Part shown: piece by piece, positions 11,110-52,167 of the stretch
Layout: every line of letters begins with the position of its first letter
Position numbering within the stretch: position 1 is the stretch's first letter
The notes under the pieces: model-generated
Told to the model about the DNA's origin: nothing
The model's input: only the letters and a program-made list of their open reading frames with translations
The model's database searches: none
Translations under genes and position numbers: made by a program
Sequence record: NC_054924.1
Source: Escherichia phage vB_EcoM_Lutter
Strand: one strand, 5' to 3'
Length of the DNA: 64,000 bases

Positions 11110-11124
11110 TCTTTGACGATTTAA

Positions 11125-11155
11125 GGGACCTTCGGGTCCCTTTAGTTGTTTTTAT
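11125..11155 (+). terminator. Rho-independent terminator after gene 23
   Basis: GGGACC-ttcg-GGTCCC hairpin followed by a T-rich tract. Confidence 0.75.
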
Positions 11156-11157
11156 GG

Positions 11158-11165
11158 TATAAATA
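11158..11165 (+). promoter_or_regulatory. Late promoter TATAAATA upstream of gene 24
   Basis: Exact TATAAATA 27 nt upstream of the gene 24 ATG. Confidence 0.55.
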
Positions 11166-11192
11166 AATCATATAAACCAAAAGGAAAGCGCA

Positions 11193-15931: not shown

Positions 15932-15960
15932 TAGATATATTTATTACATGGTATTTAGAC

Positions 15961-17472
15961 ATGACTGACATTAAAGTACATTTTTATGATTTTAGTCACG
16001 TGAGAATTGATTGTGAAGAAAGCACATTTCATGAACTCCGTGATTTCTTTAGCTTTGAAGCTGATGGGTATCGTTTTAATCCGAAGTACAAATATGGTCA
16101 CTGGGATGGACGAATCCGTCTTTTAGATTATAATCGTCTTCTTCCATTCGGTTTAGTCGGGCAAATTAAAAAGTTCTGTGATAACTTTGGCTATAAAGCC
16201 TGGATTGACCCACAGATTAACGAAAAAGAAGAATTATCAAGAAAAGATTTTGATGAATGGCTTTCTAAATTAGAAATCTATTCAGGAAATAAAAGAATTG
16301 AACCACACTGGTATCAAAAAGATGCAGTGTTCGAAGGATTAGTTAATCGTCGTAGAATTCTTAATCTTCCAACATCCGCTGGTAAATCGTTAATTCAAGC
16401 TCTGCTTGCTCGGTATTATTTGGAAAATTATGAAGGTAAAATTCTTATCATTGTTCCAACAACTGCTCTAACAACTCAGATGGCTGATGACTTCGTTGAC
16501 TATCGTTTATTCAGTCATGCAATGATAAAGAAAATTGGTGGCGGAGCATCAAAAGATGATAAATATAAAAATGATGCACCAGTCGTTGTTGGTACATGGC
16601 AAACTGTAGTAAAACAACCGAAAGAATGGTTCTCACAGTTTGGAATGATGATGAATGATGAATGCCATCTTGCTACAGGAAAAAGTATTTCATCTATCAT
16701 ATCAGGTTTAAATAACTGTATGTTTAAATTTGGTTTGTCTGGTTCATTACGTGACGGCAAAGCCAATATCATGCAGTATGTTGGAATGTTTGGTGAAATA
16801 TTTAAGCCAGTAACGACCTCTAAATTAATGGAAGATGGACAAGTAACTGAGTTAAAAATTAATAGTATTTTTCTTCGCTATCCCGATGAGTTCACTACTA
16901 AATTAAAGGGAAAAACTTACCAAGAAGAAATAAAAATTATTACTGGGCTCAGTAAAAGAAATAAATGGATCGCTAAATTAGCTATTAAGCTTGCACAAAA
17001 AGATGAAAACGCTTTTGTCATGTTTAAACATGTATCGCATGGTAAAGCTATTTTCGATTTAATTAAAAATGAATACGATAAAGTTTATTACGTATCAGGG
17101 GAAGTTGATACCGAAACCCGCAATATAATGAAAACCTTAGCTGAAAATGGTAAAGGAATAATTATAGTAGCTAGTTATGGTGTATTTTCTACTGGTATTT
17201 CAGTTAAAAATCTACATCACGTTGTTTTAGCGCACGGTGTTAAATCAAAAATCATTGTATTACAAACAATCGGTCGTGTATTACGTAAGCATGGTTCTAA
17301 GACAATAGCAACAGTCTGGGATCTTATAGATGACGCGGGCGTTAAGCCAAAATCTGCTAATACGAAAAAGAAATATGTTCATTTGAACTATCTTTTAAAA
17401 CACGGCATTGATCGTATTCAGCGCTACGCAGATGAAAAATTTAATTACGTAATGAAAACAGTTAATTTATAA
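15961..17472 (+). CDS. uvsW: UvsW DNA/RNA-DNA helicase (SF2)
   Basis: 503 aa; Walker A TSAGKS and DECH box; sequence recognised as T4 UvsW. Confidence 0.93.
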   Translation: MTDIKVHFYDFSHVRIDCEESTFHELRDFFSFEADGYRFNPKYKYGHWDGRIRLLDYNRLLPFGLVGQIKKFCDNFGYKAWIDPQINEKEELSRKDFDEWLSKLEIYSGNKRIEPHWYQKDAVFEGLVNRRRILNLPTSAGKSLIQALLARYYLENYEGKILIIVPTTALTTQMADDFVDYRLFSHAMIKKIGGGASKDDKYKNDAPVVVGTWQTVVKQPKEWFSQFGMMMNDECHLATGKSISSIISGLNNCMFKFGLSGSLRDGKANIMQYVGMFGEIFKPVTTSKLMEDGQVTELKINSIFLRYPDEFTTKLKGKTYQEEIKIITGLSKRNKWIAKLAIKLAQKDENAFVMFKHVSHGKAIFDLIKNEYDKVYYVSGEVDTETRNIMKTLAENGKGIIIVASYGVFSTGISVKNLHHVVLAHGVKSKIIVLQTIGRVLRKHGSKTIATVWDLIDDAGVKPKSANTKKKYVHLNYLLKHGIDRIQRYADEKFNYVMKTVNL

Positions 17473-36516: not shown

Positions 36517-36749
36517 AGTACGCCATACACCCTTTGTGCTTCAACTAATCCATCAAAATCCAGTTTAAGATGCGATATTTGATCGCCATCGCCTGGATTC
36601 ACAATTACTAATACTGAACGAGGAGTTTCGGTAATAACACGAACCGATGTTTCAGGAAATCGTTCAGAAACCTTATTTACCAATTCCTGAGCAAATAGTT
36701 TAACTTTTTCTTGGAATTCTTTAACAGTAATTGGTTTTTCACTTAGCAT
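36513..36749 (-). CDS. Hypothetical protein (cd.2 position)
   Basis: 78 aa ORF. Confidence 0.55.
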   Translation of the reverse strand: MLSEKPITVKEFQEKVKLFAQELVNKVSERFPETSVRVITETPRSVLVIVNPGDGDQISHLKLDFDGLVEAQRVYGVL

Positions 36750-37270
36750 GTTGATCCCAGCTCCTTACTTTCAACGTTTTTAACTAATTTGACAGAAACT
36801 AATTCAGCATCTTGAGTAATCATTACCGGGCCTTCTTCATACTCTTCAAGATATTCTAGAGCTTTCTTTTTAGCTTCTTCCTTCGTATCAGTTTGAGCAT
36901 AGATATAAAACATACAACCAGTAATACCTACTACTTTCCACTTAATTTCTTTATCAGTTTTAATTTCAAATTTACTGACAGAATCATCTTTTTGAACTTC
37001 TTCGAAAAAAGAATATTCTAACATATAAGCAATTGAAAATAACGGGCTAACTTTATAAGATTCGCCCATTACATCAACAGCTTTATACCAACAATCATCA
37101 ATTTCGCGTTTAATGCTAATAACATTTTTCGCAGGATCTATTTTTACTTTAAATGAATTTTCCCCAATAAACTGGGCAATTCGTTTATTAGCCCCGCAAG
37201 TTTCATTAAAAATATCTTTATATCCAGCTTTAAAGCGATAAACCTTATCTTCTTCAAACCATTCGCTCAT
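36743..37270 (-). CDS. Hypothetical protein (cd.3 position)
   Basis: 175 aa ORF, GAGGAAA SD, early promoter upstream. Confidence 0.6.
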   Translation of the reverse strand: MSEWFEEDKVYRFKAGYKDIFNETCGANKRIAQFIGENSFKVKIDPAKNVISIKREIDDCWYKAVDVMGESYKVSPLFSIAYMLEYSFFEEVQKDDSVSKFEIKTDKEIKWKVVGITGCMFYIYAQTDTKEEAKKKALEYLEEYEEGPVMITQDAELVSVKLVKNVESKELGSTC

Positions 37271-38001: not shown

Positions 38002-39226
<1,225 letters not shown>

Positions 39227-42273: not shown

Positions 42274-43443
42274 TTAAAAATATTTTTTAAAACTCATCAT
42301 AACTTTATCATCAACATCATTATCAATCTGTGCTACAAGGTAAGATGACAGTTCTACTTCTTGCGGCGCGGATTGAACATTATCAGAATTAAGGTATTCA
42401 CGAATCCAAGGATATGGATGTTTAACCGGAGCATCGGTAATTGGGCATGGAAGACCGCACTGTTTCATACGAGATACAGTTAAGTAATCAATAAAGCTCC
42501 ACATGCTATTTGTATTTAATCCAGGAACATCACCATCTTTAAATAAATGAACTGCCCAATCTTTTTCTTGGCGGTTAACTTCCATGAAAATATCAACTGC
42601 TTCTTGTTCACACTCTTGAGCAATTTTAACCCATTCATCGCCATCAGTGCCAAGTTGAAGTTGACGAATAATATATTGAGTGCCTTTAAGGTGAAGCTGC
42701 TCATCACGTGCAATGAACTTCATAATCTTGGCATTACCTTCCATGATTTCCATATTCTTGTGGAAGTTAAAGGTACATGCGAAAGATACATAAAAACGAA
42801 TAGCTTCTAAGGCATTAATAACGTGCAAACAGAGGTAAAGAGATTTCATTAGCTCTCGTTTGGCGTATTCAACGACTTTACCAAGTTCATCTTTGCGCCA
42901 ACCTTCAGACAAAATTCCTTCGTATTCTTCTTTAGCGTTTTCCCATTCACGGGTTTTAACCAAGACATCATCGTAATATCGCCCAATGGACTCAGCACGT
43001 TTCATAATAGCTTCATCTAATACAATCTCATCAAACACCTTCGATGGATCAGTATAAAGATTTCGCATGATATGTGTATATGAACGGCTGTGAATAGTTT
43101 CACTAAAAGTCCACGTAGCAACCCATGTATCAAGGCTTGGGTCTGAAATTAATGACATAAGTACAGCAGATGGCGCGCGACCCTGAATGCTATCCAAAAG
43201 TGATTGATACTTCAGGTTATTAGTAAAAATATTCTGTTGATACTGAGGAAGTTTATTAAATTGTGCAGCATCCATCATCAAGTTTACTTCTTCAGGACGC
43301 CAGAAAAATGATAAAGATTTCTCAATAAGTTCTTCAAATACTCTATGCCGTTGAATATCATATCGAGCTAAACCCAATCCAGAACCAAAAAACATCGGCT
43401 CAGTCAAAATATTAACAGGGGATGTATTAAAAACTGTACTCAT
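42274..43443 (-). CDS. nrdB: Ribonucleotide reductase small subunit, uninterrupted (no intron)
   Basis: 389 aa continuous ORF; diiron ligand motifs; recognised as T4 NrdB. Confidence 0.95.
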   Translation of the reverse strand: MSTVFNTSPVNILTEPMFFGSGLGLARYDIQRHRVFEELIEKSLSFFWRPEEVNLMMDAAQFNKLPQYQQNIFTNNLKYQSLLDSIQGRAPSAVLMSLISDPSLDTWVATWTFSETIHSRSYTHIMRNLYTDPSKVFDEIVLDEAIMKRAESIGRYYDDVLVKTREWENAKEEYEGILSEGWRKDELGKVVEYAKRELMKSLYLCLHVINALEAIRFYVSFACTFNFHKNMEIMEGNAKIMKFIARDEQLHLKGTQYIIRQLQLGTDGDEWVKIAQECEQEAVDIFMEVNRQEKDWAVHLFKDGDVPGLNTNSMWSFIDYLTVSRMKQCGLPCPITDAPVKHPYPWIREYLNSDNVQSAPQEVELSSYLVAQIDNDVDDKVMMSFKKYF

Positions 43444-44081
43444 TTAGAATCCTTAAATTTACATTTATCATAATGCCATCTTAGAGCATTGCCTTTATTA
43501 ACCTTCTTGCCACAATGCGGACAAGGCGGATACTCTATACTTTGCTTAGTTCTCAAAGAAATCAAATCACGAGTTTCTTTAGTATGAGGAACATCTCTTG
43601 TTGGAGAGATTGTACCATACATCGGATTAAGCACGCCGACTTTAGCAGCAGCTATATTCTTTTTAGCTTCTTCGGTTTTAGGTTTTCTCATGCGAGCTAA
43701 ATGCTCTTTGGTAAATTTCCTTCCTTTAAGAGCTCTACTTATCTTTTCCCTGGTTTCTATAGAAACTTCACGTCCTATAGCAGCTTCAGATAAACGTCGT
43801 CTACCTAATTCGTATAGTTGAGAAGAAATTTTATATGAGCGATTTTTACCAGTCAAGCACATTAAACCAAAAGCTTTCTTTAATCCTGGGGTGTCATATA
43901 TTTTGCATAAAAGCCAATGAGCTATAAAATGCTCTCTACCTGTTAATTCAACTAAATTTTCTTTATCATCAGAACCTCCCATACATCTAGGGATTATATG
44001 ATGAGTCTCTTTATATTCAGATAAAGGTTCCCGAGCCTGAGCTCGGGAAATTAGGTCATTATAGATTTTTTGATAATTCAT
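43440..44081 (-). CDS. mobE: HNH homing endonuclease (MobE-like)
   Basis: 213 aa; HNH motif HHIIPRCMGGSDDKENLVELTGREHFIAHW; C-terminal CPHCGKK zinc finger; sits between nrdA and nrdB. Confidence 0.8.
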   Translation of the reverse strand: MNYQKIYNDLISRAQAREPLSEYKETHHIIPRCMGGSDDKENLVELTGREHFIAHWLLCKIYDTPGLKKAFGLMCLTGKNRSYKISSQLYELGRRRLSEAAIGREVSIETREKISRALKGRKFTKEHLARMRKPKTEEAKKNIAAAKVGVLNPMYGTISPTRDVPHTKETRDLISLRTKQSIEYPPCPHCGKKVNKGNALRWHYDKCKFKDSK

Positions 44082-46345
44082 TACAATTTACACGCTGCGC
44101 AATCATCGGCTTTTGGAGTTTCTATTTCATAATCATCAGTACCAGAACCATCGCGGGTATTATGATAATAGAAATTTTTTCCGCCAAAATACCAAAAATA
44201 CAAAAGGTCATCAATCATTATTGACATTGGAACCTTTCCTTTTGGAAAAATCTGTGGGTCATAATATGTATTCGCCGAAGCTGATTGACAAACCCATTTC
44301 AGCATAATAGCTACCTGCGTAAGATAAGGTTTATTACCTTTCTTAGCTAATTTCCATGTATAATCATAGAGGTCTATGTTATGCTCAATATTGGGCACGA
44401 CTTGATTAAAGGAGCCCTCTTTTGATTCTTTAACAGAGACTGGTCCACGTGGAGGCTCGATACCGTTTGTACTGTTAGAAACTTGGGAAGATGACTCACA
44501 TGGCATAAGTGCTGATAATGTGCTATTACGGATGCCAAAGAGCTTAAGGTCTTCCCGCAGCGACGACCAGTCACAAACGTATTTTGGAGCTGCGATTTGG
44601 TCAATCTTTTTATTGTACCAGTCGATAGGTAATTCGCCTCGAGACCAACGAGTGTCTGAATAATATTCGCAAGGTCCTTTTTCTTTGGCGAGCTTAATGG
44701 ATGCTTTAATGAGTCCATACTGTAATCTCTCAAATAGTTCATGTGTTAAATCGTTAGCATCTTCATAAGAAGCAAAGTTACTTGCCAGCCAAGCTGCATA
44801 GTTAGTAACACCTACACCAAGGTTTCGACGCTTTTTAGCTTTTTCTGCTTCAGGAACTGGATATCCTTGGTAATCCAAAAGATTATCAAGAGCACGAACT
44901 TGAACTTCTGCCAATTCATTAATTTTATCTTGGTCTTGCCAGTCAAAATTATCCAGTACGAATGCAGAGAGAGTACACAATCCAATTTCAGCATCAGGAC
45001 TATTCACATCATTTGTTGGAATAGCAATTTCACAGCACAAGTTACTCTGACGAATAGGTGCCTTTTCACGAATAAACGGAGTATAGTTATTCGTATTATC
45101 AATGAACTGCACATAAATCCTTGCTGTTCCTGAACGTTCAGTCATGAGCAATTCAAATAGTTCACGGGCTTTAATACGCTTTTTACGAATATTAGGGTCT
45201 TTTTCTGCTGCTTCGTATAATTCACGGAAACGGTCTTGGTCTTTAAAATAAGAATAATAAAGCTCGCCACCCATTTCATGCGGACTGAACAAAGTAATGT
45301 AATCGTTCTTTCCGAATCGTTCCATCATCAAATCATTCAGCTGAACACCATAATCCATATGACGAATGCGGTTTTCTTCTACGCCTTTGTTATTTTTCAA
45401 AACGAGAAGATTTTCAACTTCCAAATGCCAAATAGGATAATAAGCAGTAGCAGCGCCGCCACGAATTCCACCCTGTGAACATGATTTAACTGCAGTCTGA
45501 AAATGTTTCCAAAAAGGAATAACACCAGTATGGCGTACTTCACCCATGCCAATCTTAGAACCTTCAGCACGAATCATACCTACGTTAATTCCAATTCCAG
45601 CGCGTTTAGAAATATATTCAACAATTGAAGCAGAAGCTTTATTAATTGACTTCAATGAATCACCAGCTTCAATAACAACGCATGAACTAAACTGTCGAGT
45701 CGGAGTACGGCAACCAGCCATAATAGGAGTTGGCAATGAAATCTGTCGAGTAGATACTGCTTCATAAAAACGAATAACATGTTTTAATCTATCAACAGGT
45801 TCATCTTGATGCAATGCCATTCCAATAGTCATAAATGCAAACTGTGGAGTTTCATAAATTTGACCAGTGGTTTTATCTTTAACTAGATATTTTTCTTTTA
45901 ATTGCATCGCCCCGGAATAAGTAAATTCCATATCCCGCTCGTGCTTAATTTTTGATTCTAAAAATGTAATTTCTTCTGCTGAATATTTTGACAATAATTC
46001 AGGGTCGTATTTACCTTCATTTACACAGTAAGAAATATGGTCAATAAATGAACGTGGTTCATACTGTCCATAAACATGCTTACGAAGAGCAAACATTAAA
46101 CAACGTGCAGCTACATATTGATAATCAGGCTCTTCAACCGAAATAGAATTCGCAGCAGCCTTAATGACAATAGTCTGAATATCATTAGTTGTCATTCCAT
46201 CACGGAGATAAGATTTAATATTTTCATATAATTCATAAGGATCTACTGATGTTCCTTCAGCTGCCCAAGATAAAACTTTAATAATTTTTTGTGGGTCAAA
46301 GCTCTGAGAAACACCACTACTTTTGATAACATTAATTAATTGCAT
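44081..46345 (-). CDS. nrdA: Ribonucleotide reductase large subunit
   Basis: 754 aa; N-terminal ATP-cone; class I RNR catalytic motifs; recognised as T4 NrdA. Confidence 0.97.
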   Translation of the reverse strand: MQLINVIKSSGVSQSFDPQKIIKVLSWAAEGTSVDPYELYENIKSYLRDGMTTNDIQTIVIKAAANSISVEEPDYQYVAARCLMFALRKHVYGQYEPRSFIDHISYCVNEGKYDPELLSKYSAEEITFLESKIKHERDMEFTYSGAMQLKEKYLVKDKTTGQIYETPQFAFMTIGMALHQDEPVDRLKHVIRFYEAVSTRQISLPTPIMAGCRTPTRQFSSCVVIEAGDSLKSINKASASIVEYISKRAGIGINVGMIRAEGSKIGMGEVRHTGVIPFWKHFQTAVKSCSQGGIRGGAATAYYPIWHLEVENLLVLKNNKGVEENRIRHMDYGVQLNDLMMERFGKNDYITLFSPHEMGGELYYSYFKDQDRFRELYEAAEKDPNIRKKRIKARELFELLMTERSGTARIYVQFIDNTNNYTPFIREKAPIRQSNLCCEIAIPTNDVNSPDAEIGLCTLSAFVLDNFDWQDQDKINELAEVQVRALDNLLDYQGYPVPEAEKAKKRRNLGVGVTNYAAWLASNFASYEDANDLTHELFERLQYGLIKASIKLAKEKGPCEYYSDTRWSRGELPIDWYNKKIDQIAAPKYVCDWSSLREDLKLFGIRNSTLSALMPCESSSQVSNSTNGIEPPRGPVSVKESKEGSFNQVVPNIEHNIDLYDYTWKLAKKGNKPYLTQVAIMLKWVCQSASANTYYDPQIFPKGKVPMSIMIDDLLYFWYFGGKNFYYHNTRDGSGTDDYEIETPKADDCAACKL

Positions 46346-46599
46346 AAGTCCTCAACTTGAAAATCGTCTTTAAACAATCGGTTAACTATATGAGCTATTA
46401 TATCACCATGACACGGCTTTGGTTTACATGTGCATCCTAGCCTCATTCCACGTAAAGGCTCTAAATGTGCTTTAGTTATTTCTCCGGATTTAATTCGACG
46501 TATAAAATCTTTTTTTGAATAATTCAATGGCAGCCTCCCGGCTGCCAGCATCTTTACCGACGTAATTTCCCCAAAATGTACCGCGGTGAATATTAACAT
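46336..46599 (-). CDS. Hypothetical protein (nrdA.1 position)
   Basis: ATG at 46599 (ORF-track start 46602 is TTG); contains CTCKPKPCHGD Cys/His cluster. Confidence 0.55.
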   Translation of the reverse strand: MLIFTAVHFGEITSVKMLAAGRLPLNYSKKDFIRRIKSGEITKAHLEPLRGMRLGCTCKPKPCHGDIIAHIVNRLFKDDFQVEDLCN

Positions 46600-46616
46600 C
46601 AAAGTCGGATTTGTAT

Positions 46617-46880
46617 TTATTCACTACCCGACATAGACGGCCCGCGCGGTGATAATTCGGCATATTGTTTTTCCGTTAATACAGTAATATCGTAGTAACA
46701 GTCAGAAGAAGTTTTAACTGTGGAAATTTTATTGTCAAAATATTCACGAGTCATTGTATGAGTATAGTATTTTTTACCATAAATGATAATAGGCTGTTCT
46801 GGTCCTGGAACTTCTAACTCGCTTGGGTTAGGAAGTGTAAAAAGAACAACGCCAGAAGTATCTTTAAATCGTAAAATCAT
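46617..46880 (-). CDS. Hypothetical protein (nrdA.2 position)
   Basis: 87 aa ORF. Confidence 0.5.
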
Positions 46881-47188
46881 ATTGCCATTTTCCCTTTAAT
46901 TGCTGGATGCGATTCATAATTTTCAAGGATAAAATCTTTCGGTTTCATGTATTCAGTTAACCAGTAAAGCTGTGTTTCGGTGTCACAATTTCCAAACTCT
47001 ATAGGCCAATCAATTTTAAGTTCACACAGTTCTTTAGGCTCACGACGTAAAATTTCTTTACATTGCTCAGTATGATTCATATAGATGTGAGTATTACCAC
47101 CAGAAAATATCAAATCTCCTGGGATAAGATTACACATCTTAGCCACAATATGTGTCAAGGCAGCGTACGAGGCAATGTTGAACGGTAG
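46877..47188 (-). CDS. td: Thymidylate synthase, exon 2
   Basis: Exon begins CTACCGTTC (LPFNIASY...) directly after intron 3' end CATAATG; with exon 1 gives 286 aa. Confidence 0.9.
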
Positions 47189-48204
47189 CATTATGTTCAG
47201 ATAAGGTCGTTAATCTTACCCCGGAATTATATCCAGCTACATGTCACCATGCAGAGCAGACTATATCTCCAACTTGTTAAAGCAAGTTGTCTATCGTTTC
47301 GAGTCACTTGACCCTACTCCCCAAAGGGATAGTCGTTAGGCATTTATGTAGAACCAATTCCATTTATCAGATTTTACACGATAAGTAACTAATCCAGACG
47401 AAATTTTAAAATGTCTAGCTGCATCTGCTGCACATTCAAAAATAACCCCATCACATGAAATCTTTTTAATATTACTAGGCTTTTTACCTTTCATCTTTTC
47501 TGATATTTTAGATTTAGTTATGTCTGAATGCTTATGATTAAAGAATGAATTATTTTCACCTGAACGATTTCTGCATTTACTACAAGTATAAGCAGAAGTT
47601 TGTATGCGAACACCGCACTTACAAAACTTATGGATTTCTGGATTCCAACGCCCATTTTTACTTCCGGGTTTACTGTAAAGAGCTTTCCGACCATCAGGTC
47701 CAAGTTTAAGCATCTTAGCTTTAACAGTTTCAGAACGTTTCTTAATAATTTCTTCTTTTAATGGATGCGTAGAACATGTATCACCAAACGTTGCATCAGC
47801 AATATTGTATCCATTAATTTTAGAATTAAGCTCTTTAATCCAAAAATTTTCTCGTTCAATAATCAAATCTTTCTCATATGGAATTTCTTCCAAAATAGAA
47901 CATTCAAACACATTACCATGTTTGTTAAAAGACCTCTGAAGTTTTATAGAAGAATGGCATCCTTTTTCTAAATCTTTAAAATGCCTCTTCCATCTCTTTT
48001 CAAAATCTTTAGCACTTCCTACATATACTTTATTGTTTAAAGTATTTTTAATCTGATAAATTCCGCTTTTCATAAATACCTCTTTGAATATAGAAGTATT
48101 TATTAAAGGGCAGTCCTACAATTTAGCACGGGATTGTCTACTAGAGAGTTTCCCCGTTTAGATAGATTACAAGTATAAGTCACCTTATACTCAGGCCTCA
48201 ATTA
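47189..48204 (-). mobile_element. Group I self-splicing intron in td (1016 nt) carrying I-TevI
   Basis: 5' end TAATTGAGGCCTGAGTATAAGGTGACTTATACTTG after exon GGGT; 3' end CATAATG; both ends as recalled for the T4 td intron. Confidence 0.92.
47336..48073 (-). CDS. I-TevI: I-TevI GIY-YIG homing endonuclease (intron-encoded)
   Basis: 245 aa; GIY-YIG motif GIYQIKNTLNNKVYVGSA; C-terminal zinc finger and DNA-binding domain; recognised as T4 I-TevI. Confidence 0.93.
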   Translation of the reverse strand: MKSGIYQIKNTLNNKVYVGSAKDFEKRWKRHFKDLEKGCHSSIKLQRSFNKHGNVFECSILEEIPYEKDLIIERENFWIKELNSKINGYNIADATFGDTCSTHPLKEEIIKKRSETVKAKMLKLGPDGRKALYSKPGSKNGRWNPEIHKFCKCGVRIQTSAYTCSKCRNRSGENNSFFNHKHSDITKSKISEKMKGKKPSNIKKISCDGVIFECAADAARHFKISSGLVTYRVKSDKWNWFYINA

Positions 48205-48753
48205 ACCCAAGAAAACATCTACCGAACGTTGATACCACTGCAAATCCAAATAACCATTACGCACATTAAACTGATAGAACATATGACAGGGCGGTAATGC
48301 CATTTGATTGATTTCAGCTGGATTCCATGCTGAAACGATTTGACGTCGATCAGTTGGTAATTTTTTAATACGATCAATAGTTTCAACTAATTGATCCACA
48401 CCACCGAAATCACGCCATTGTTTACCGTATATAGGACCAAGTTCACCACTATGATATCCTAGGTCTTTAGCTTGGTTTTCATAATTGTCATCCCAGATAG
48501 TTTTACCTTGAATAAGACTACCGTGAGTAAGAAGACGTAAATCATTAACATTGGTAGAACCGGAAATAAACCATAGAAGCTCAGCAATGCATGCATTCCA
48601 GGCGAGCTTCTTAGTTGTTACTGCAGGAAAACCTTTAGTTAAATCCCATCGTAATTTAGTACCGAACAAAGCAATTGTTCCTGTGCCCGTTCGGTCATCG
48701 GTTTCATAGCCATTTTCAAAAATGTCTTTAATTAAATCTTGGTATTGTTTCAT
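48205..48753 (-). CDS. td: Thymidylate synthase, exon 1
   Basis: 183 codons ending ...VDVFLG with terminal U before intron; TS active-site motif PPCH. Confidence 0.93.
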
Positions 48754-48798
48754 TTAGTACCTTATATAAATTATAATACATTTTATGAAGCTGAATAA

Positions 48799-49146
48799 TC
48801 AATACGGTTTAGCATCAAATTTTCTCTCAATTTCAGGTGTGAAATATAATTCTTTACCGCGTTTGGAAAAGCGACCAATAATATGATAATTATTCTCATC
48901 AAACGTGATATTACCAATATCCATAGCTTTCAACCAAATATCGATATTTCTATCCAGCTTTATGTCAAAATTCCAATACGGAGAACTATTACCGAAAATA
49001 CTACAAGCGGATTCAGTGAAACAGCTACTATAAATCTTGTCTTTAGGAACTACTAATTGATAGACACCTTTAATAAACTGAGGACCTTGCCATTTTGGCT
49101 GTTTCTCGTCTTTTTCTAATAGAATAGGGTAATAATTAAAATTCAT
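48799..49146 (-). CDS. Hypothetical protein inserted between frd and td
   Basis: 115 aa ORF with ATG start occupying a gap where frd and td overlap in T4. Confidence 0.6.
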   Translation of the reverse strand: MNFNYYPILLEKDEKQPKWQGPQFIKGVYQLVVPKDKIYSSCFTESACSIFGNSSPYWNFDIKLDRNIDIWLKAMDIGNITFDENNYHIIGRFSKRGKELYFTPEIERKFDAKPY

Positions 49147-49165
49147 ATTTCCGCCACGCGTTATT

Positions 49166-49986
<821 letters not shown>

Positions 49987-49995
49987 TATATTTCC

Positions 49996-52068: not shown

Positions 52069-52140
52069 TTTTATTTCCTTTTTAATTTAATTAACAGTTG
52101 GTGCTATGACGATGTATGACCTCATAGCTGGTCAGTGAGA
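52069..52140 (-). promoter_or_regulatory. Gene 32 mRNA leader (site of the gp32 translational operator)
   Basis: About 70-nt AT-rich untranslated leader between promoters and the gene 32 ATG. Confidence 0.4.
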
Positions 52141-52142
52141 TA

Positions 52143-52167
52143 ATTATAATCTATTTATAATAAGCAA
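52143..52167 (-). promoter_or_regulatory. MotA-dependent middle promoter with overlapping late TATAAATA, upstream of gene 32
   Basis: Minus strand TTGCTTA (MotA box), 12 nt, TATAAT; the spacer itself contains TATAAATA (52152..52159). Confidence 0.55.

Follow-up and report, generated by a model that had tools for sequence, protein, structure and literature searches.

The stretch of DNA analysed here (the window) comprises 64,000 nucleotides of Escherichia phage vB_EcoM_Lutter (NC_054924.1). Positions 46877-48753 of the window, on the minus strand, are almost certainly td, the gene for thymidylate synthase, of a T4-like phage (Tequatrovirus), split by the mobile, self-splicing intron (group IA) that also interrupts td in T4. 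The features of the locus are as follows, with spans given in window coordinates.

48205..48753, minus strand: td exon 1, 183 codons; Pfam PF00303 profile positions 1-175 (E=2e-63); 86% nucleotide identity to T4 exon 1
47189..48204, minus strand: td intron, group I (subgroup IA), 1016 nt, starting UAAUUGAGGCCUGAG and ending CAUAAUG
46877..47188, minus strand: td exon 2, 103 codons plus stop; PF00303 profile positions 176-266; 73.5% nucleotide identity to T4 exon 2
48113..48204, minus strand: 5' part of the ribozyme core (intron nt 1-92), with the P1 3' strand, P2, the P3 5' strand, P4, P5 and the 5' strands of P6 and P6a
47189..47356, minus strand: 3' part of the ribozyme core (intron nt 849-1016), with the 3' strands of P6a and P6, P7, P7.1, P7.2, P3', P8, P7', P9, P9.1, P9.2 and the terminal G
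47336..48073, minus strand: I-TevI homing endonuclease ORF of 245 aa, in the P6a loop, recognised by Pfam domains, PDB matches and identity to T4 at 243 of 245 residues
48097..48104, minus strand: late-promoter-like motif AATAAATA (intron nt 101-108), matching TATAAATA at 7 of 8 positions, inside the segment GGACUGCCCUUUAAUAAAUAC
48070..48103, minus strand: predicted RBS hairpin, pairing the I-TevI Shine-Dalgarno GAGG (48079-48082) and the first start-codon bases with upstream sequence
48227..48231, minus strand: candidate I-TevI cleavage motif CAACG (5'-CNNNG-3'), exon 1 positions -27 to -23, within the CAA CGT (Gln-Arg) codons of YQRS

Boundaries and reading frames of td

On the sense strand the two boundaries read ...TTCTTGGGT / TAATTGAGGCCTGAG ... 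GAACATAATG / CTACCGTTC, so that the first base of the intron is 48204 and the last 47189, and the predicted ligated junction is ...GUUUUCUUGGGU joined to CUACCGUUCAAC (in RNA, ...UUGGGU/CUACCG). The coordinates and the length of 1016 nt given in the original prediction were confirmed to the base; its boundary strings were also right, but they had been given with no strand and are the reverse complement of the window. The ORF of exon 1 (48202..48753, 183 aa) ends at a UAA made up of intron bases 1-3, and that of exon 2 (46877..47191, 104 aa) begins at an AUG made up of the last three intron bases. The earlier warning that the gene is easy to misannotate thus holds, since the stop and start codons contributed by the intron ends split td in a mechanically generated ORF track. 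Most database phages carry two separate CDSs named 'thymidylate synthase', some of them with the remark 'unable to determine exon/intron boundaries'. The appropriate annotation of td is one joined CDS, complement(join(46877..47188, 48205..48753)), with I-TevI as a CDS of its own within the intron; the small ORFs of the intron should not be called.

Joining exons 1 and 2 at these boundaries gave, as had been predicted, a thymidylate synthase of 286 aa, which aligns over residues 1-286 with the T4 enzyme of PDB entry 1tis (E=3e-172), and the junction (...DVFLG/LPFNIASYA...) falls in a gap-free part of that alignment. The Pfam thymidylate synthase profile is covered from 1 to 266, with exon 1 accounting for positions 1-175 and exon 2 for positions 176-266; positions 175 and 176 adjoin at the junction, so the two halves abut exactly. 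The product is a full-length ThyA (PF00303) with the catalytic Cys (PPCH) and the dUMP-binding motifs rich in Arg, the segments ALPPCH, DRRQIVSAWN and WYQRS all being present. The joined exons are, moreover, colinear with the td of phage CHD94UKE2 (L010 502-1362, 861 nt), an allele that has no interruption; the two differ at 27 of 861 nucleotides, and 285 of 286 amino acids are identical.

Outside td, comparison with T4 showed that segD, segE, segG and the nrdB intron are absent from the window, which contains several small ORFs in addition to those of T4. One ORF in the window, encoding a 213-aa HNH endonuclease, spans both T4 mobE and T4 nrdB.1, and a poly-A run in nrdA.1 contains a +1 frameshift. 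A search of the window for tRNA genes gave no match.

The ribozyme core and the I-TevI gene

At the 5' splice site the internal guide sequence GCCUGAG (intron nt 9-15) pairs with the end of exon 1, CUUGGGU, to form a P1 of 7 bp that places U(-1).G9 at the splice site, and at the 3' end (...CAUAAUG/CUACCG) a terminal guanosine stands directly before the splice site. The wobble pair is invariant in seven td intron homologues, and the terminal G is conserved in all of the homologues. We could place helices P1, P2, P3, P4, P5, P6, P6a, P7 (as a pseudoknot), P7.1, P7.2, P8, P9, P9.1 and P9.2 on the intron of the window, in a model of 77 pairs in 14 helices in which every pair is a standard one. In an alignment of ORF-deleted versions of the seven homologues, 98.7% of the paired cells were able to pair, as compared to 31-43% when the partners were slid by one to three columns. 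Eight pairs, located in P7.2, P8 and P9.2, showed compensatory double changes (3 of the 5 pairs in the case of P7.2), and three pairs of P1 were altered on one side with pairing retained; the observed covariation score was reached by none of 500 shuffles. P7.1 is present as well, with changes in its loop only. Supplied with no structure, RNAalifold found all of the intron helices except the pseudoknotted P7. Because P3, P4, P6 and P7 are invariant in the alignment, covariation neither supports nor contradicts these four helices; their sequences are identical to those of T4.

The intron of the window thus has a P1 with the U.G pair, a P3-P9 core with the P3/P7 pseudoknot and P4-P6, P7.1 and P7.2, and a terminal G, and compensatory changes lend support to the group I structure as a whole, P7.1/P7.2 included. 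The presence of P7.1 and P7.2 between P7 and P3' is a hallmark of subgroup IA, and the T4 record itself notes the td intron as a 'group 1A intron'. The identification as the td group I intron is borne out both by this full P1-P9.2 core and by 99.3% identity to the T4 intron.

The agreement with Rfam, which had been put forward as a check, was mixed. A search of the whole window at the gathering threshold gave no Intron_gpI match, and one at E<=0.01 gave nothing; a local scan placed RF00028 in two pieces, one of 37.5 bits (E=1e-7, 47237-47467) and one of 13.9 bits (48078-48157), as against a gathering threshold of 50 bits. The shortfall arises because the ORF and its leader, with 756 nt between the P6a strands, fill the P6a loop. 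Natural copies of the td intron that have no ORF scored 70.3-75.7 bits with RF00028, and their cores align with both core parts of the window with only a handful of substitutions. The window itself therefore stayed below the gathering score, which the ORF-less copies of the intron exceeded (70-76 bits), and we dropped the possibility that the insert is not a group I intron, as these natural copies exceed the threshold. More generally, ORF-bearing group I introns escape Rfam scans at the gathering threshold.

The ORF in the P6a loop is an intact, full-length GIY-YIG endonuclease gene, as originally described, with 245 aa, no stop or frameshift, and all catalytic and zinc-binding residues kept. 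Pfam recognises GIY-YIG (PF01541, E=2e-18), I-TevI_ZnF (PF22635, E=1e-20) and I-TevI_DNA-bd (PF20987, E=2e-32), so that a zinc finger in the linker and a helix-turn-helix DNA-binding domain at the C-terminus are both present. The first 97 residues match PDB entry 1mk0 save for its engineered E75A, with 1ln0 matching over the same residues, and residues 130-245 match 1i3j with two substitutions. When checked singly, the catalytic residues Y6, Y17, R27, H31, H40, E75 and N90 were all present, and the zinc-finger cysteines C151, C153, C164 and C167 were intact. Only three changes in 738 nt separate the ORF from that of T4: one is silent, one (T147I) lies just N-terminal of the zinc finger, and one (D213E) lies within the DNA-binding domain. 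All four of the more distant I-TevI homologues have E at residue 213, and at residue 147 they show T, R, N or I, so both substitutions sit at naturally variable positions. The last 7 codons of the ORF, stop included, share their sequence with the P6a and P6 3' strands and with J6/7; in T4, the end of the I-TevI ORF likewise overlaps ribozyme 3' strands (PMC2988022).

Upstream of the ORF, the segment GGACUGCCCUUUAAUAAAUAC equals the T4 segment minus one T, and its T4 counterpart holds a late promoter and the I-TevI operator (PMC2988022). Within the window, the best match between the segment and the homing site reached 12 of 20 identities, which 863 of 2000 shuffles also reached. As 12 of 20 is no better than shuffled sequence, the putative operator is assigned solely by its identity to T4, and the putative late promoter is likewise assigned by identity to T4; any likeness between operator and homing site is undetectable in the window because exon 2 of this phage differs from that of T4. 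The RBS hairpin has a minimum free energy of -16.6 kcal/mol (z=-4.29), none of 200 shuffles being as stable, and differs from the T4 hairpin only by C119, which lies in the loop. In T4, the hairpin blocks I-TevI translation on read-through transcripts (PMC2988022). A scan of the region for sigma-70 promoters and terminators, a scope that does not extend to T4 middle and late promoters, yielded no more than the shuffle expectation, and the lone terminator-like match on the plus strand is uninformative because it is helix P8 of the intron, read on the opposite strand.

Splicing, homing and the alternatives

Splicing, cleavage, homing and regulation we infer by analogy with T4. The td gene would be transcribed as one pre-mRNA, in which the intron RNA, judging from its near-identity to that of T4, would fold into the group I core. 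GCCUGAG and CUUGGGU would form P1, and free guanosine held in P7 would attack after the splice-site U; the terminal G would then take the same P7 site, and the exons would be ligated to give the mRNA for the 286-aa enzyme. Unspliced td RNA would give a truncated product only, because the intron opens with an in-frame UAA. The C-terminal domain of I-TevI would bind an intronless td around the insertion site, with the catalytic domain cutting at CAACG, 23/25 nt upstream, and in a mixed infection double-strand-break repair from the intron-bearing genome would transfer the intron, along with a short piece of the adjoining exon sequence, to the allele that had been cut. I-TevI itself would be restrained, again by identity to T4, through an internal late promoter under an I-TevI-bound operator and an RBS-hiding hairpin on read-through transcripts, which together would keep ribosomes off the ribozyme core until late infection.

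I-TevI cuts 23/25 nt upstream of the insertion site and prefers CNNNG (PMC2988022). CAACG is found at this location both in exon 1 of the window and in the intronless allele of CHD94UKE2, and intronless alleles of the RB14 type have CAAAG at the cleavage site, which is still CNNNG, its G being the second base of the Arg codon. Of the 27 exon differences between the window and the closest intronless allele, four lay at most 7 nt from the insertion site, and all four are synonymous. At the site itself the window has GGT/CTACCG, the intron-bearing type, versus GGC/TTGCCA in that allele. About 0.2 differences would be expected per 7 nt, and this cluster of donor-type bases at the td junction is thus consistent with, and probably due to, a short co-conversion tract. 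The donor-type bases are confined to -1 to +6. At -22 and -19, between the cut and insertion sites, the bases are neither those of T4 nor those of the nearest intronless allele, so that no phage can be named as donor of the intron. Three intronless Tequatrovirus alleles that we examined have GGN/TTGCC at the insertion site rather than GGT/CTACC. A general rule of such recoding in intronless alleles was nevertheless dropped, as IMG/VR has 40 contigs with an uninterrupted junction of the GGN/CTNCC type versus 4 of the TTG type, and we take the recoding as a signal of co-conversion only locally, in comparison with the closest allele. One could go further and propose that a td allele unlike that of T4 recently received the intron by homing, with a co-conversion tract of unusual shortness, or that T147I, next to the zinc-finger 'ruler', tunes I-TevI to this divergent target; we consider either improbable, and if true, it would add little to what is known of a well-studied system.

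Two amino acid differences from the characterised T4 enzyme could also mean that the intron splices but that T147I and D213E impair I-TevI, leaving this copy stranded, no longer mobile and heading for ORF decay. Decayed copies do exist, with I-TevI truncated in phage e11/2 and the ORF gone from the introns of phages C2-3, HP3 and CJY920, but the ORF of the window has neither stop nor frameshift, its catalytic residues and zinc ligands are intact, positions 147 and 213 vary naturally, and three nucleotide changes in 738 relative to T4 leave little time for decay. We thus hold impaired mobility to be more doubtful again. A defect in splicing, which would make td a pseudogene and the phage reliant on the host thymidylate synthase, might be read from the four nucleotide differences from T4 outside the ORF and from the missed Rfam threshold. 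However, all of the core helices pair in the window sequence, these differences fall at unpaired or variable positions or change G-C to G.U, and a pseudogene would not be expected to have profile-complete exons encoding a protein identical at 285 of 286 residues to that of an uninterrupted allele, which makes such a defect very unlikely.

The reading to which we give practically no credence is that there is no intron at all and that each half of td is translated on its own, the GIY-YIG endonuclease gene between the two being free-standing. The ORF track and most annotations do look like this, with a homing endonuclease gene between two CDSs for thymidylate synthase, and the ORF of exon 2 starts at an AUG of its own. 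That AUG and the UAA that closes exon 1 are, however, the terminal bases of the intron, and the insert folds as a complete group I core with covariation, has ORF-less versions that pass the Rfam model and is 99.3% identical to a T4 intron whose splicing is established (PMC2988022). A td gene interrupted by a self-splicing, I-TevI-encoding intron of the T4 kind remains by far our preferred reading.

Distribution and relation to known td introns

The full-length td intron was found in 196 records of the phage collection, and in 149 of these it was at least 99% identical, a number at which chance is not an issue; in 412 records the exon junction was uninterrupted or split by a short intron only. 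In each of five comparisons with other phages, the intron was closer to its counterpart than the exons were to theirs. Identities for intron, exon 1 and exon 2, respectively, were 99.3, 86.0 and 73.5% with T4; 93.1, 86.9 and 74.4% with Lv5cm; 90.3, 84.9 and 74.7% with Mosigvirus AV109; and 78.7, 71.9 and 68.0% with Gelderlandvirus Melville. This contrast between intron and exons, together with the patchy distribution, is a signature of horizontal spread by homing, and an intron at 99.3% identity between exons at 74-86% is a clean textbook case of it. The original description of the intron as mobile is thus supported indirectly, by an intron more conserved than its exons, its patchy distribution and CAACG 23-27 nt upstream of the insertion site, which together suggest mobility. 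Intron distribution is reportedly also the subject of Sandegren & Sjoberg 2004 and Quirk et al. 1989. An intron that is younger than the gene it sits in and is patchily distributed is what homing would be expected to leave behind, and this is already known in T-even phages (PMC2988022). Over 24 kb, the window proved to be a mosaic of Tequatrovirus sequence, with 97.5% identity to the best record of the collection and no record identical; the phage genome is therefore a new mosaic, whereas the intron element is not new.

The closest comparison is with the td intron of T4 (NC_000866; T4p237/T4p238), which shares with the window the gene, the insertion site (...UUGGGU/CUACCG) and the whole architecture. 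Alignment with the T4 intron, which had been suggested as a check, showed 1009 of 1016 positions to be identical, and the seven differences are A56, one T fewer, C119, three changes in the ORF and U966. A56 lies in the J4/5 region, where homologues carry C, A or U, and U966 changes a G-C pair of P9 to G.U. The RefSeq T4 intron is 1017 nt long, its extra T coming directly after the 5' strand of P6a, and other T4 records and all other homologues match the 1016-nt form. The four differences outside the ORF (A56, the missing T, C119 and U966) thus appear to be benign. The exons, in contrast, differ from T4 at 77 of 549 nucleotides in exon 1 and 95 of 312 in exon 2, and the td protein is identical to that of T4 at 239 of 286 residues, with a divergent segment near its C-terminus. 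I-TevI is identical at 243 of 245 residues, and the promoter/operator segment and the RBS hairpin are shared.

Other T-even-type td introns include those of vB_EcoM_G2133 (99.9%) and PTE-Eco15 (99.6%), and T4T, RB5, LZ2 and U5 carry such introns as well. PTE-Eco15 also has the same exon allele as the window, at 99.3% over a 2-kb query (46800-48800) that takes in td and short flanks. The td introns of phages C2-3, HP3 and CJY920 have no ORF and measure 254-320 nt, with core and insertion site as in the window, and in phage e11/2, where core and insertion site are again those of the window, I-TevI is truncated to an ORF remnant of 55 aa, whereas the copy in the window is intact. Mosigvirus AV109 (90%), Gelderlandvirus Melville (79%) and Pseudomonas phage PspYZU05 share the insertion site, the helices and a 245-aa I-TevI homologue; their introns are diverged and are the source of the pairing changes in P1, P7.2, P8 and P9.2. 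The window copy is thus the intact stage of the homing-endonuclease life cycle, and, as the td intron with I-TevI is already known, it is one of about 196 copies in sequenced phages.

Intron content and homing endonuclease genes

Relative to T4, the window differs at nrdB and nrdA.1, in its homing endonuclease genes and in several small ORFs; these features and nrdA are located as follows.

36743-37270, minus strand: ORF for a 175-aa protein between cd.2 and cd.3 (insertion 36749-37267; phrog_3710)
38906-39226, minus strand: ORF for a 106-aa protein between pseT and pseT.1 (insertion 38907-39219; phrog_2364)
42274-43443, minus strand: nrdB, an uninterrupted 389-aa ORF (breakpoint relative to T4 at 42776/42779)
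43440-44081, minus strand: HNH and NUMOD3 endonuclease, a single 213-aa ORF between nrdB and nrdA
44081-46345: nrdA, an intact single 754-aa ORF
46336-46663, minus strand: nrdA.1, with a frameshift run at 46510-46516
48799-49146, minus strand: 115-aa ORF between frd and td (insertion 48757-49160; phrog_1928)
49744-49986, minus strand: 80-aa ORF upstream of frd (insertion 49749-49990; phrog_4308)

Because the window nrdB lacks the group I intron that in T4 carries a defective I-TevIII (T4 138458-139057), the td intron is the only one found in the T4-shared part of the window. Also missing are segD, segE and segG, which in T4 are free-standing genes for GIY-YIG homing endonucleases; the breakpoints, at 11120-11181, 15947-15967 and 52131-52167, are each a short junction of 20-60 nt. 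The unbroken nrdA, in turn, contrasts with the nrdA of phage PTE-Eco15 (L002, 5455-8001), the nearest relative across the td region, where the gene is annotated as two pieces with a 236-aa homing endonuclease gene between them.

The HNH endonuclease ORF joins two stretches known from T4: its 119 N-terminal residues match MobE (77 of 119 identical), and its 83 C-terminal residues match the T4 "NrdB.1 hypothetical protein" (81 of 83 identical) with the frame unchanged. Since the two matches follow one another in a single frame, T4 nrdB.1 looks, from this comparison of sequences, like the detached C-terminal part of a longer MobE-type endonuclease, a part that is probably DNA-binding. PMC2790892, the paper on MobE, says nothing of nrdB.1.

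Frameshifted nrdA.1 and small additional ORFs

The 108-aa product of nrdA.1 is identical among T4, PTE-Eco15 and CHD94UKE2 (a phage with an intronless td), whereas in the window a +1 frameshift in a homopolymer (A7 vs A6 in T4) breaks the gene into overlapping ORFs of 57 aa and 88 aa. Either the extra base is an error of sequencing or assembly, or nrdA.1 is a fresh pseudogene here.

T4 lacks the 115-aa ORF, its frd and td genes overlapping each other directly, and the 80-aa ORF and the insertions at cd.2/cd.3 and pseT/pseT.1 are likewise absent from it; the 115-aa ORF does occur in PTE-Eco15 and in the intronless CHD94UKE2. All four products gave no Pfam match, and their PHROG families are of unknown function.

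The td gene and its intron compared with other phages

At codons ~236-262 of td (window ~46940-47020), exon 2 encodes a C-terminal segment of thymidylate synthase (TS) that is a different allele from that of T4: the T4 segment reads VISGLPYKFRYLSTKEQLKYVLKLR, and its 24-residue counterpart in the window differs from it and is shared with the intronless CHD94UKE2. This allelic difference accounts both for the exon 2 identity to T4 of 73.5% and for the breaking of T4-type megablast matches into two pieces.

Pseudomonas phage PspYZU05 (L007, 1494-2513), whose annotated host is Pseudomonas, has a diverged 1020-nt td intron with an I-TevI homologue, and its record lists the td exons as two separate genes. 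With the intron boundary placed by matching the pattern of the conserved ...CATAAATG end, the first codon of exon 2 is AAA (Lys), a position occupied by Leu in other TS genes, and helix P9.1 of this intron is one register off in the alignment.

The td intron of the RefSeq T4 record (NC_000866.4, 4549-5565) is 1017 nt long and has GGACTTGCCC at the position corresponding to window 48112. The 1016-nt form, in which this position holds just one T or a different base, is seen in the window, in further T4 records (T4T, OZ035787) and in all the remaining homologues. Judged from these alignments, the extra base may be a long-standing single-base discrepancy of the reference record.
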